27,201 bases of DNA. Origin: Gaiellales bacterium (GTDB taxonomy: Bacteria; Actinomycetota; Thermoleophilia; Gaiellales; JAICJC01). The DNA is taken from NCBI GenBank assembly GCA_036273355.1, contig DASUHV010000245.1, forward strand, positions 1-27,201, in the 5' to 3' direction. Positions 13,049 to 25,520 of the stretch are shown here, one piece after another; the stretch's first letter is position 1; each line of letters starts with the position of its first letter. Both the position numbers and the translations under genes were made by a program. The notes beneath the pieces were generated by a model that saw nothing but the letters and a program-made list of their open reading frames with translations, searched no databases and was not told the origin of the DNA.

Positions 13049-15178
13049 ATGGAGCGCCTGATCCTGCGCAGCGCAGCGGTCTGCACGCGCCGCCCGTGGT
13101 GGGTGGTGGCGATCTGGATCGTGCTGCTGGCCGCCGCCCTGCCGTTCTCCGGCAAGGCCCAGGGCGTGCTCTCCTCCGGCGGCTTTGACGTCCCCGGCTC
13201 GCAGTCGCAGCAGGCGATCGACTACCTCAACAACCAGCCCGGCCGCGGCGCCTACTCGTTCTCGTTCCTGGTCGACGCCCCCACCGCCGCGGCCGCCCAG
13301 GCACGGGTCGCCCAGGTGCGCGCGCGGGTGGCCGCGCGCTACCCCGAGATCCACTTCACGACCGTGCCCGAGGAATCGCCTGACGGCAGCACCATCTCGT
13401 TCGTCGGCTTCGCGTCGGTCGACCAGAACCGCTCGCTCACGATCTCCCGCGACCTGAAGACCCTGGTGCAGCGCACCGACCCGCCGGTGCGCACCTTCCT
13501 GCTGGGCCCGTCCGCCAACTACGCGACCTTCCAGGACATCACCGAGCAGGGCCTGCAGCGCGCCGAGCTGCTGTCCTCGCCGGTGATCCTGATCGTGCTG
13601 CTGGTGCTGTTCGGCGCCGTCGTGGCGATGCTGGTGCCGGCCGCGCTGGGGGCGCTGTCGGTGCTGATCACCTTCGCCCTCGTCTACCTGGTCGCCTCGC
13701 ACACGGAGGTGTCGGTCTACGCGACCACGATGGTGACCATGATCGGCATCGGCGTCGCCGTGGACTACTCGATGTTCATCCTCGCCCGGTTCCGCGAGGA
13801 GCTGCTGGCCGGTGCCCCCACCGATCGGGCGGTTGCGACCGCGATGGCCACGTCTGGCACGGCCGTGGCGTTCTCAGGCATGACCGTGATCGTCTCGCTG
13901 GCCTCGATCTGGATCGTGCCCGTGCGCGCGGTGCAGTCGATGGCGCTGGCCGCGATCATGGTGGTGACCATTGCCGTGCTGGCGGCCATGACGCTGCTAC
14001 CCGCGGTGCTGATGCTGCTCGGCCCGCGCATCAACGCGCTGCGCATCCCCGGCCGCAGGGAGCGACCCGGCCGCGAGGGCTTCTGGATGCGCTGGACGCG
14101 CGGCGTCATGCGCCGTCCGCTGCTGTCCGCGCTGGGCGCCGCCACGCTGCTGATCGTGCTGTCGCTGCCCGCGTTGTCGATGGTGACCGCCAACCGGTCG
14201 CTCGAGCAGCTGCCCTCGTCCACCGATGTCAGAGTCGGCAACGCGATCCTGACCAAGCAGATCACCGGCCCCGGCCAGGGCCGCGAGGGTGCGCTCACGA
14301 TCCTGGTGCGCCCCCAGGACGCCGGCGGCTCCAGCCCGGCCGCCGTCGCCGCGGAGCTGCGCGCCCGGCTGGCCCGCGATCCCCTGGTCCAGGCCGCGAC
14401 GGTGGAGCCGGCGGGTCCCAGCCAGATCGTGGTCGGGCTGCTGCGGGTCGACCCCGAGTCCAGCAAGGCGGTCGACGTGCTCGTGCCGCGCGTGCGCTCC
14501 TGGGTCGGCGGCCGCGGGCTGGTGAGCGGCCTGTCTGCCTTCAACCACGACCTCAACACCGAGGTCGGTGACGACCTCTGGAAGGTGATGGCGCTGGTGC
14601 TGGGGCTGTCCTACCTGGTGCTGCTGATGCTGCTTCGCTCCGTGCTGCTGCCGCTGAAGGCGGTGATCATGAATCTGCTCTCGATCGGCGCCTCGTACGG
14701 GGTGATCGTGGCCGTCTTCCAGTGGGGCTGGTTCGACTGGACCGGCTACCACGCGCTGGGCCACATCAACACGCTGAACCCGGCGCTGATCCTGGCCATC
14801 ACCTTTGGCCTGGCGATGGACTACGAGGTGTTCCTGCTGTCGCGGATCCGCGAGCGCTACGAGGCCACCGGCGACAACACGCGGGCCGTCGCCGAGGGGC
14901 TTGCGTCGAGCGCCCGCACCATTACCTCGGCCGCGGCCATCATGACCATCGTGTTCGCGAGCTTCGTGCTCACCGGGGTGCCTGCGATCAAGGAGATCGG
15001 GCTGGGCCTGGCCGTCGCGATCGCCGTCGACGCCACCATCACGCGGCTGGTGCTGGTGCCGTCCACCATGCGGTTGCTCGGCCAGTGGAACTGGTGGCTG
15101 CCGGGCTGGCTCGACCGCCGCCTGCCGCACATGGCGCACGGCGCGCCGCGACGGGTCGCTTCGGAGACCGGCGACTAG
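13049..15178 (+). CDS. MMPL family (RND superfamily) transporter
   Basis: Two MMPL repeats with GIGVAVDYSMFILARFREE and FGLAMDYEVFLLSRIRE, plus DATITRLVLVPSTMRLLGQWNWWLP. Confidence 0.94.
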   Translation: MERLILRSAAVCTRRPWWVVAIWIVLLAAALPFSGKAQGVLSSGGFDVPGSQSQQAIDYLNNQPGRGAYSFSFLVDAPTAAAAQARVAQVRARVAARYPEIHFTTVPEESPDGSTISFVGFASVDQNRSLTISRDLKTLVQRTDPPVRTFLLGPSANYATFQDITEQGLQRAELLSSPVILIVLLVLFGAVVAMLVPAALGALSVLITFALVYLVASHTEVSVYATTMVTMIGIGVAVDYSMFILARFREELLAGAPTDRAVATAMATSGTAVAFSGMTVIVSLASIWIVPVRAVQSMALAAIMVVTIAVLAAMTLLPAVLMLLGPRINALRIPGRRERPGREGFWMRWTRGVMRRPLLSALGAATLLIVLSLPALSMVTANRSLEQLPSSTDVRVGNAILTKQITGPGQGREGALTILVRPQDAGGSSPAAVAAELRARLARDPLVQAATVEPAGPSQIVVGLLRVDPESSKAVDVLVPRVRSWVGGRGLVSGLSAFNHDLNTEVGDDLWKVMALVLGLSYLVLLMLLRSVLLPLKAVIMNLLSIGASYGVIVAVFQWGWFDWTGYHALGHINTLNPALILAITFGLAMDYEVFLLSRIRERYEATGDNTRAVAEGLASSARTITSAAAIMTIVFASFVLTGVPAIKEIGLGLAVAIAVDATITRLVLVPSTMRLLGQWNWWLPGWLDRRLPHMAHGAPRRVASETGD

Positions 15179-15186
15179 CGGATTGA

Positions 15187-15353
15187 AGATGGTTGATTCC
15201 ACGAGCTGCGCGGCGCCGGACTGGTCTGGCACACGCTGAACGCCGCGATCGTCCTTGCCCAGGACATGCCCAGCCTGTGCTGCGGACGCTCACGACGTTC
15301 AACCCGCGCCATTCTGCGCCCAGCATCCACGCATCCCGTGAAATCAACCATCT
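15187..15353 (-). repeat. 167-bp palindromic element with terminal inverted repeats (copy 1 of a MITE/REPIN-like family)
   Basis: AGATGGTTGATTCCACG at 15187-15203 versus CGTGAAATCAACCATCT at 15337-15353. Nearly the whole element pairs as one hairpin. Same termini as the element at 25321-25520. Confidence 0.8.
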
Positions 15354-15428
15354 GCTCCGTCCGACCCCCCTGCGATGCTTCTTTGTCCGGCCCGTAAGGT
15401 CGGCGCAGGCGGAAAGGACGGTCCTCAC

Positions 15429-16712
15429 ATGCTCTGGTTGATAGTCGGAATCGTGATCGGAATGGTTGTCGCCCTGGCGGCGCTGCGCCCGCGCCTGGCC
15501 GAGGTCGGCGTGTTGCGGCGCGAACGCGACACCTACGCGAATGAGGCGTCGCGGCTGGAGGGCCGCCTGGAGAGCGAGCGGGCGATGGCCGAGGACCGGT
15601 TCAAGGCGCTGTCGGCCGACGCGCTGAAGCAGAACAACGAGCAGTTCCTGACGCTGGCCAAGCAGGCCCTGGGCACGTATCAGAGCGAGGCCAAGGGCGA
15701 GCTCGAGAAGCGCGAGCAGGCGGTCCAGCAGCTGGTGGCGCCGATCTCGGAACAGCTCAAGCTGGTGGACACGCGTCTGGAGCGGCTCGACCGGGACCGC
15801 GTCCAGAGCTCCAGCGTGCTGCAGCAACAGCTGCGCACGATGGTCGAGTCGCAGGAGCGTCTGCGCGGCGAGACCGGAGCGCTGGTGGCGGCCCTGCGCA
15901 AGCCCCAGGCGCGTGGCCGCTGGGGGGAGATGCAGCTGCGAAACGTGGTCGAGATGGCCGGCATGGTCGGCTACTGCGACTTCGCCGAGCAGGTGACGGT
16001 CCGCGACGACGACCGCACCCTGCGCCCCGACCTGGTCGTGAACATGCCCGGCGGCAAGAAGGTGGTGGTCGACGCCAAGGCGCCGCTGCAGGCCTTCCTG
16101 GATGCCTACGACGCCACCGGTGACGTCGACCGCGACCGGCATCTGGCCGAGCACGCGCGGCTGCTGCGCGACCACGTCCGCAAGCTGTCGGCGCGCAGCT
16201 ACTGGGCGCAGTTCCCGGAGGCGCCCGACTTCGTGATCCTGTTCCTGCCCGGCGAGCACTTCTACAACGCGGCGCTCGAGGCCGACCCCACGCTGATCCA
16301 GCAGGGCGTCGAGCAGAAGGTGCTGATCGCCACGCCCACCACCCTGATCGCGCTGCTGCGCGCCGTGCACTACGGCTGGCAGCAGGAGAAGGTGGCCGAG
16401 AACGCGCGCGAGATCAGCGAGCTGGGCCGCGAGCTGCACTCGCGGCTGGGCACGGTCGCCGGCCACGTGAACGCGCTCGGCAAGCGGCTGGGCAGCGCGG
16501 TGGACGCCTACAACTCGGCGGTCGGATCGCTGGAGACGCGGGTGCTGGTCAGCGCCCGTCGCTTCACCGAGCACAGCGTGGTCGGCGAGGACAAGCAGAT
16601 CCAGATGCTGGAGCCGGTCGACCGCGTGCCGCGTTCGCCGCAGGCACCCGAGCTGGCGGCGGTCAACGACGACGAGGTGGTCGAGGCCCCGCGCACGCTG
16701 GGCGCCGCCTGA
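15429..16712 (+). CDS. rmuC: DNA recombination protein RmuC
   Basis: N-terminal TM, coiled coil, ARGRWGEMQLRNVVE, LRPDLVVNMPGGKKVVVDAKAP, YWAQF...PDFVILFLPGE and ATPTTLIALLRAV. GGAAAGGA RBS before the ATG at 15429. Confidence 0.95.
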   Translation: MLWLIVGIVIGMVVALAALRPRLAEVGVLRRERDTYANEASRLEGRLESERAMAEDRFKALSADALKQNNEQFLTLAKQALGTYQSEAKGELEKREQAVQQLVAPISEQLKLVDTRLERLDRDRVQSSSVLQQQLRTMVESQERLRGETGALVAALRKPQARGRWGEMQLRNVVEMAGMVGYCDFAEQVTVRDDDRTLRPDLVVNMPGGKKVVVDAKAPLQAFLDAYDATGDVDRDRHLAEHARLLRDHVRKLSARSYWAQFPEAPDFVILFLPGEHFYNAALEADPTLIQQGVEQKVLIATPTTLIALLRAVHYGWQQEKVAENAREISELGRELHSRLGTVAGHVNALGKRLGSAVDAYNSAVGSLETRVLVSARRFTEHSVVGEDKQIQMLEPVDRVPRSPQAPELAAVNDDEVVEAPRTLGAA

Positions 16713-24698: not shown

Positions 24699-25325
24699 AT
24701 GAGCTATCGAGTTGTGTGCATATCGCGTGACGTGGGTGCCGGTGGCGAGGACGTGGGCCGTGCGGTCGCGTCGCAGCTGGGCTTCCGGTACGTGGATGAG
24801 GAGATCGTGCGGAGGGTCGCCGAGGAATCGGGGCTCGACCACGCCAGGGTGGCTGGAGCCGAGGAACGGCGAGGGCTGGTCGCGCGCCTGCTGGACGCGG
24901 TCGAGCAGTCGGCCGCCGGACTGCCCGAGCCGTACATGTACGCGGCCGACGTGCAGCTGCCGGCCGCTCCGGGTGAGGACGTCCGCGAGCTGATCCGCGA
25001 GGCGGTGCGACAGACGGCCGACGAGGGCGACGTCGTGATCGTGGCCCACGCTGCGTCGCACGTGCTGGCCGGCCGCACTGAGGCGCTGCGGGTGTGGGTG
25101 ACCGGGTCGCCCCACGCGTGCGCCGAGCGGCTGGTCGCCACCGCCGGGGTGGATGCCAGGCGCGCCGGCGAGCTGGTTGAGGGCGGGCGCAAGGCGCGCG
25201 CCGACTACCTGCGCCGGTTCCACGACGTCAAGCAGGAGCTGCCCAGCCAGTACGACGTGGTGCTGAGCACCGATGCGCTGAGCGTGGACGACGCGGCCGC
25301 CGCCGTGGTCATGCTGGCTAGATGA
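24699..25325 (+). CDS. Cytidylate kinase-like family protein
   Basis: CISRDVGAGGEDVGRAVASQLGFRYVDEEIV P-loop-like start, GDVVIVAHAA, and YDVVLST. TAGTCT -10 lies 6 nt before the ATG. The stop codon lies inside the repeat terminus. Confidence 0.85.
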   Translation: MSYRVVCISRDVGAGGEDVGRAVASQLGFRYVDEEIVRRVAEESGLDHARVAGAEERRGLVARLLDAVEQSAAGLPEPYMYAADVQLPAAPGEDVRELIREAVRQTADEGDVVIVAHAASHVLAGRTEALRVWVTGSPHACAERLVATAGVDARRAGELVEGGRKARADYLRRFHDVKQELPSQYDVVLSTDALSVDDAAAAVVMLAR

Positions 25326-25520
25326 TTGATTCCACGTCCCCGCGCGCCTGACCGTCCGTACTGCTGGTGGGTGCGTGTGGCTGCGGTGCTGCGGTCGGGA
25401 AGCGTGCGCATCGCAGCGTCCTCGGTCGGGCCGATATTCCCGATATCGGCCCTCCCTCGATCCTGGCGCTGCTTGCTTACCGACCGCTCAGGACATCACG
25501 GCGACGTGGAATCAATTATC
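25321..25520. repeat. 200-bp element with terminal inverted repeats and nested stems (copy 2 of a MITE/REPIN-like family)
   Basis: GATGATTGATTCCACGTC at 25321-25338 versus GACGTGGAATCAATTATC at 25503-25520 (17/18). Internal stems of 5, 13, 8 and 10 bp. Termini match the element at 15187-15353. Confidence 0.8.

Follow-up and report, generated by a model that had tools for sequence, protein, structure and literature searches.

A dispersed palindromic repeat family of Gaiellales whose pairing is conserved on one strand

A palindromic repeat of ~166 nt, situated between two genes of an uncultured Gaiellales bacterium, is one copy of a dispersed family (family A) whose members all fold better on one and the same strand. 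Our preferred reading, which we hold with about even confidence, is that the hairpin is a non-autonomous MITE/REPIN-like mobile repeat that propagates or persists by way of a single-stranded hairpin, most likely of ssDNA. Dispersed hairpin repeats (REP, REPIN, MITE, and ERIC-like) are common, but their mode of movement and the physical form that is selected have rarely been shown. Family A offers a clean readout, obtained from sequence only, which points to a single-stranded life stage and is independent of the local direction of transcription or replication. The family departs from each of the known families compared here in a defining feature and is an undescribed mobile hairpin family of Gaiellales; our literature search found no paper describing repeats of Gaiellales.

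The hairpin and its locus

The window (the whole 27,201-nt stretch of DNA that was analysed) is part of a 2.5-Mb Gaiellales MAG, G000, with 348 contigs and 71% G+C. The family A copy occupies positions 15187..15353, and its assignment draws on folding, on other copies, and on the empty site in six congeneric species. The G-rich, well-folding strand of its conserved core, GATGG...CCATC (15188-15352), is the minus strand of the window. The core is bounded by a left terminal inverted repeat, GATGGTTGATTCCACG (15188..15203), for which the family consensus is GATGRTTGATTCCAC, and by a right terminal inverted repeat, CGTGAAATCAACCATC (15337..15352). The original prediction had described four ungapped paired segments, nine of whose mismatches become wobbles on the minus strand. 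Our recount was identical, with 23/27, 4/5, 21/28, and 6/7 Watson-Crick pairs (54 in total), and the mismatches on the plus strand comprised nine C-A, zero G-T, and four others. Both strands of the 167 nt were then folded as RNA and compared with dinucleotide shuffles, and the energies differed as had been predicted: the plus strand reached -72.7 kcal/mol (z = -4.2), and the minus strand was far stronger at -114.5 kcal/mol (z = -12.5). The minus-strand fold is a single continuous rod with nearly all bases paired. The hairpin is real and its strand bias is far beyond chance.

Upstream of the element lies a putative MMPL-type gene (13049..15178, plus strand), the TAG stop codon of which (15176-15178) is 8 nt before the element. 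Downstream lies a putative rmuC-like gene (15375..16712, plus strand); both genes were delimited from the ORF list and codon-position GC, and both names are those of the original prediction. The insertion parts the MMPL stop codon from the upstream region of the rmuC-like gene. In six congeneric species the same site is without the element, with flanks 94-98% identical to the window, and in one further species (G005) the site is filled by an element that has lost internal sequence and whose junction bases are not the same. From these comparisons the window copy is a recent insertion.

In the window, the strand that folds well is the antisense strand of both neighbouring genes, and one proposal had been an independent minus-strand small-RNA gene antisense to MMPL or rmuC transcripts. 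We regard such a gene as highly improbable, as the element is missing from the locus in six close relatives and the same sequence recurs at about 10-20 unrelated loci per genome in both orientations. The antisense partnership is thus not supported for this dispersed mobile repeat, and the orientation relative to genes is near random over the 90 copies examined across the family. A gene for a ~170-nt small RNA fares no better, as neither a promoter-like nor a terminator-like signal was found in or beside the element, the stem of which includes the first and the last bases. An Rfam search with relaxed thresholds returned no matching family, the best hit being a sub-threshold microRNA-hairpin look-alike (26.7 vs 92 bits). 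For annotators, such rods in Gaiellales genomes are mobile DNA at gene ends and not locus-specific small-RNA genes.

Distribution and architecture of family A

A BLAST search of 60 relatives found family A in 12 of the 16 species of the genus and in three of the four species of one sister genus, and did not find it in the other four families searched. In a scan of named genome records, the hosts were uncultured soil MAGs labelled Gaiellales, Thermoleophilia, Actinomycetes, or Solirubrobacterales; being uncultured, they limit experiments for now. Exact 20-mer matches in MAGs of Planctomycetota, Pirellulaceae, and Vicinamibacterales were discarded, as their number was about that expected by chance and the rest of the element was absent. 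G000 carries ~11 full-length copies, two copies cut by contig ends, and four internally deleted or truncated copies. About 80 further copies were gathered from relatives, and 90 copies from 14 species were examined. A pattern built on the termini gave 22-43 matches in each of four MAGs (three from the genus, one from the sister genus), equivalent to about 10-20 elements per genome, and only seven in a second sister-genus MAG (G028).

Conservation extends over a core of 166 nt, whose 16-nt terminal inverted repeats (consensus GATGRTTGATTCCAC) are conserved in all copies. Family A is a palindromic rod over its whole length and is polymorphic between close species. With its terminal inverted repeats, its small size, its lack of coding capacity, and its many dispersed copies, it has the traits of MITEs. 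When ~38 sites that are filled in relatives were compared with G000, most were empty in G000, three held full orthologous copies, and a few held stubs. Four orthologous pairs were 96.0% conserved vs 93.9% for their largely coding flanks, which hints at some constraint on resident copies too. In G000, a full copy (C267:125-291) and a 48-nt deleted copy (C221:9545-9592) have an identical right flank and different left flanks, which could reflect strain heterogeneity of the MAG or recombination between copies.

One folded strand is conserved across copies

The wobble and strand bias of the window copy was sought in the other copies and proved to be family-wide, with 90/90 copies from 14 species folding better on the strand that matches the minus strand of the window. 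With RNA parameters the 90 copies average -110.0 vs -75.6 kcal/mol (median difference 35), with DNA parameters -54.1 vs -39.1 kcal/mol, and the smallest strand difference in any copy is 12 kcal/mol. The consensus rod derived from an alignment of 61 copies has 58 pairs, and 97.1% of its cells are paired on the favoured strand vs 84.6% on the other. Covariation across homologous copies was found: compensatory double changes occur in 25 of the 58 pairs, a level of pairing and covariation that was reached by 0/500 column shuffles, and slid controls were only 35-42% paired. Complete compensatory switches, from G-C to A-U, are frequent deep within the element. On the favoured strand, the 61 aligned copies contain 458 G-U cells vs 18 A-C cells. 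Even where position 5 of the terminal repeat varies between G and A, the outcome on this strand is G-U and never A-C.

Such an excess could come from a biased supply of mutations or from a filter acting on them, and the frequency of the variants separates the two. Variants seen in a single copy are balanced (12 G-U-type vs 14 A-C-type), those in two to three copies are mostly G-U (12 vs 2), and those in four or more copies are exclusively so (18 vs 0); shared variants overall thus number 30 G-U vs 2 A-C, in a class that includes both variants multiplied by transposition and those passed down in orthologous copies. An alignment of 87 sequences gave the same trend across frequency classes. As the single-copy variants are symmetric and the shared ones are nearly all G-U, the bias does not come from mutation but from a filter in favour of a single folded strand. 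A tree-based count placed 100 G-U-type vs 23 A-C-type events on terminal branches of a poorly resolved tree, and because of that poor resolution we relied on the frequency classes instead. The orientation of the element relative to the GC skew of its flanks is 48:42 over 90 copies, which is not significant. Since copies lie in both orientations to skew and to genes, a mutation bias linked to replication or transcription cannot yield a single polarity.

Selection on a single-stranded form corresponding to the minus strand of the window, which the original prediction had proposed for this one copy, is therefore supported across the family by the 97.1% pairing, the 458 vs 18 cells, and the 25 compensatory pairs. 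We propose that, in a phase of its life that matters to selection, the element would be a folded G-rich single strand. New mutations would strike the pairing of both strands equally, and as the variants shared between copies are only those compatible with the favoured strand, a lineage whose fold is lost would fail to multiply or persist. Comparing the wobble asymmetry of single-copy and shared variants is a simple test that can be applied to other repeat families.

Insertion sites, junctions and deletions

At most of the empty sites that could be aligned cleanly, the point of insertion is marked by a TA, which is often part of CTAG; this accounts for the position of copies on stop codons, and insertion near stop codons and TA is typical of family A. 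These targets are also those of a conventional MITE that moves as double-stranded DNA through a DDE transposase (IS630/Tc1-like or IS5-like, with TA/CTAG as target). By this alternative the palindrome and the wobble bias would be inherited from a founder or produced by hairpin-templated repair, and nothing would be selected as a single strand. The small, non-coding, dispersed nature of the element, termini that are common to at least three interior families, and the little asymmetry of one of these, family B (described below), agree with it. We nevertheless consider it distinctly unlikely, beginning with the junctions. TA stands directly beside the left end in 44/90 copies and beside the right end in equally many (44/90), yet only 12/90 copies have it on both sides vs ~21.5 if the ends were independent, so that the ends are anticorrelated and a regular TA target-site duplication was not found among the 90 copies. 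Variants at the level of subfamilies, and not those of the founder alone, are G-U-only in many cases (30 vs 2), whereas the single-copy ones are symmetric, and full compensatory changes are frequent deep inside the element, where a transposase binding the terminal repeats sets no constraint. Finally, the search described below did not find a parent IS in five MAGs or at 18 DDE loci.

TA is present at exactly one end in 64/90 copies, and which end this is bears no relation to the strand that folds (32 left, 32 right). Where only one end has an extra A or T, that end carries the full TA in 45/49 cases, and the other end adjoins arbitrary sequence. One comparison (locus L076 vs G000) shows a clean insertion of the exact core 3' of CTA with zero duplication, and other filled/empty pairs have one to three variable bases at the non-TA junction, to which we found no fit of one clean junction rule. 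Junction bases differ even between orthologous copies in different species. Such asymmetric junctions do not resemble the cut-and-paste products of a DDE enzyme with a TA duplication. The side of the TA-bearing end relative to GC skew is 27:37, which is not significant.

G000 also holds a series of nested internal deletions centred on the hairpin. A 56-nt stub (C166:2909-2964) retains both tips, as does a 14-nt stub on C187 opposite L077; a 51-nt stub lies at C221:9543-9593, and a stub of ~10 nt on C76, opposite L048, is mostly the right end. Nested deletions of this kind match what palindrome instability at the DNA level produces, and the series suggests that the palindrome is lost through hairpin-mediated deletion, not precise excision. 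At the site orthologous to window positions 15179-15360, some of the 'empty' loci carry short palindromes exactly at the place of the element: the empty site L118 (G010) has GGATCC within a 14-nt tandem duplication and L121 (G011) has AGATCT, and two other species have nothing there. The palindromes of G010 and G011 could be footprints of fused element tips.

Search for a mobilising enzyme

RAYT-like Y1 (HUH) genes were the first class of candidate partners, with three in G000 and some in all 16 species of the genus. They were rejected, as each of the three in G000 is flanked by a REP-like family of its own, and family A termini are absent within 2.5 kb of all three. The gene at C260:3650-4372 (L236) is flanked by ~40-nt inverted repeat copies, the one at C88:11697-12437 (L232) has a ~145-nt repeat upstream, and the one at C163:2099-2695 (L237) is surrounded by a repeat of ~27-40 nt that occurs at >30 loci. 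The three loci resemble classical REP/REPIN-RAYT systems, of which this small genome would then contain three. Among the Y1 matches listed for G007, G011, G012, and G024, matches and family A termini are at least about 10 kb apart. A GTAG-type tetranucleotide is absent 5' of the hairpin foot of family A, where YTA stands at about half of the ends and the rest are variable.

DDE transposases were searched likewise. Family A termini are absent from 18 DDE loci of the genus and family (DDE_3, DDE_Tnp_1, and DDE_Tnp_1_3; IS630, IS4/IS5, and IS982 type). Pairs of termini at an IS-sized spacing of 0.4-4 kb were not found in five good MAGs, a result to be read with the tendency of MAGs to lose insertion sequences. 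All genomes compared are MAGs, and assemblies of this kind often miss insertion sequences. An IS982-like DDE transposase ORF of 287 aa (G015:C92:1037-1900, L268) is present in a species rich in family B, and the termini of the element were not found within the 2.1 kb examined at this locus.

Comparison with known mobile elements

In function the closest analogues look to be REPINs, with IS200/IS605 elements also close, and the architecture looks MITE-like. REPINs are inverted REP doublets that are mobilised in trans by RAYT / TnpA-REP Y1 HUH transposases (Bertels and Rainey 2011, PMC3116915; Ton-Hoang et al. 2012, PMC3333891). Like REPINs, family A is a short non-coding dispersed repeat that forms one long hairpin with frequent compensatory changes and is kept across related species. 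REPINs are also thought to act as ssDNA, and their putative excision intermediates have been reported to be asymmetric (PMC3116915), which recalls the one-sided TA of family A. TnpA-REP genes reportedly always occur next to REPs of their own (PMC3333891), and by this standard family A falls outside the REPIN-RAYT systems. Unlike REPINs, family A has neither a cognate flanking RAYT nor a GTAG-type tetranucleotide at its foot, and its continuous 166-nt rod, with 16-nt termini common to several interiors, is more MITE-like.

Bacterial MITEs with TA or CTAG targets, for example the pneumococcal RUP, are thought to be mobilised by IS630/Tc1-mariner-type transposases. Family A resembles them in its terminal inverted repeats, in a size of 100-250 bp without an ORF, in having several interiors for one set of termini, in inserting at TA/CTAG next to stop codons, and in forming a long hairpin when single-stranded. 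It differs in that a regular TA duplication is missing (12/90) and no parent IS was found in the MAGs and at the loci searched, and in that the pairing of its interior is conserved over the entire length and on one strand only, whereas double-stranded cut-and-paste needs no such pairing.

The transposition of IS200/IS605 elements is strand-specific, the top strand alone being recognised (PMC3333891). Family A shares with them a strand-specific ssDNA form (as we read it), the lack of target duplication, and a short target at one end only. IS200/IS605 elements, however, use two different small subterminal hairpins, whereas family A is one whole-length rod; its TA end is independent of the folding strand, without an orientation bias to GC skew, and no Y1 gene carrying family A ends was found. 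A simple IS608-like model, in which the folding strand is transposed with its target 5', does not predict this independence of the TA end.

DNA or RNA as the selected strand

We favour ssDNA over RNA as the selected form. By this reading the single-stranded form would be an ssDNA hairpin that is recognised or generated during mobilisation or replication and may be handled by strand-specific enzymes, as are REPINs or IS200/IS605-type elements. The nested deletions, the one-sided and non-duplicative junctions, and the survival of the rod under DNA parameters lean towards a form at the DNA level. Of the two molecules offered by the original prediction, an independent small RNA or an ssDNA transposition intermediate, it is thus the second that appears viable and that we prefer, and the small-RNA gene finds no support.

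RNA could still be the selected strand in another way, if it arose by read-through or from outside promoters and the hairpin RNA served the host (as a processing or stability signal, or as a target of dsRNA-binding) or the element itself (in its own mobilisation or control). G-U wobbles are a classic signature of RNA, RNA parameters give the widest energy gap (-110 vs -76), the covariation is strong, and orthologous copies are conserved at least as much as their flanks. The independence of the TA-bearing end from the folding strand and the little asymmetry of family B are likewise compatible with RNA. G-T in DNA is, moreover, less stable than G-U in RNA, so that the signature fits RNA at least equally, and this counts against our preferred reading. 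Most of the G-U pairs stand alone, and DNA energy parameters leave 89% of the consensus pairs intact, so that pairing does not decide between RNA and DNA.

Four soil and root metatranscriptome runs contain short contigs that bridge 15086-15216 and 15323-15472 and so join the unique flanks to the ends of the element; as contigs they tell nothing of strand, ends, or level and may stem from DNA carry-over, and although they are in line with an RNA, they are not evidence of transcription. A selected RNA seems to us doubtful overall. Against it stand the promoter and terminator searches that returned nothing, a stem that runs from the first to the last base, the absence of bias among single-copy mutations, and the lack of an Rfam match. 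The orientation to genes is near random: in tandem gene contexts 24 copies are sense vs 16 antisense, and transcription from genes that end at an element would cover the weak strand in 44 cases and the strong strand in 33 over the 90 copies, so that read-through could yield the folding RNA from only about half of them. Two simpler models were dropped on the same counts. Among the copies of G000 the weak strand seemed to be co-directional with neighbouring genes, as would be expected if strong hairpins were avoided in mRNA, but this co-orientation fails over 90 copies; the antisense model was abandoned for want of an orientation bias in the same set.

Elements with the same termini

The GATGRTTGATTCCAC termini bound at least three interior families, namely family A, a 200-nt family B, and a 223-nt form. 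The window itself holds a family B element of 200 nt (25321..25520), with the same termini and an unrelated multi-stem interior, which folds to -110.3 kcal/mol on the plus strand and -104.7 kcal/mol on the minus strand, with nearly no strand asymmetry. Family B is present in 11 of the 16 species of the genus and is commonest in exactly the species in which family A was not detected (G003, G015, and G013). Dozens of family B copies are seen in G003 and G015. Its mean energies are -101.6 vs -108.2 kcal/mol, and the sign of the difference is inconsistent in 5/21 copies. This weak and inconsistent asymmetry counts against the ssDNA reading of family A, since the machinery is presumably the same. 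Both families would be accommodated if folding were required of at least one strand, to bring the ends together; wobbles fixed on one strand would then make a lineage depend on that strand, and later changes would have to respect it. This would amount to a symmetry-breaking ratchet.

A broader proposal is that all families with GATGRTTGATTCCAC termini would be moved by an unrecognised mechanism, acting on a whole-length single-stranded hairpin (DNA or RNA), inserting beside TA without duplication, and relying on an enzyme outside both the RAYT-type Y1 and the DDE transposases. We consider this unlikely.

The 223-nt variant consists of family A positions 37-167 plus other sequence between the same termini, and was observed at G007:C2:172206-172428, at G007:C15:402027-402249, and at five similar loci (L146, L176, L195, L196, and L198). 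Many solo left ends were also encountered (L135-L214, e.g., L147, L156, L175, L179, L183, and L210), in which 20-40 nt of the terminus are followed by unrelated sequence. In a Pfam scan around 12 of these ends, the seven ORFs beside them were housekeeping genes or unmatched, with zero transposases. The solo left ends adjoin housekeeping genes such as upp, uvrA, and recN-like, MFS, and HtrA-like genes, and TA precedes 12/13 of them vs about half of the ends of full copies.
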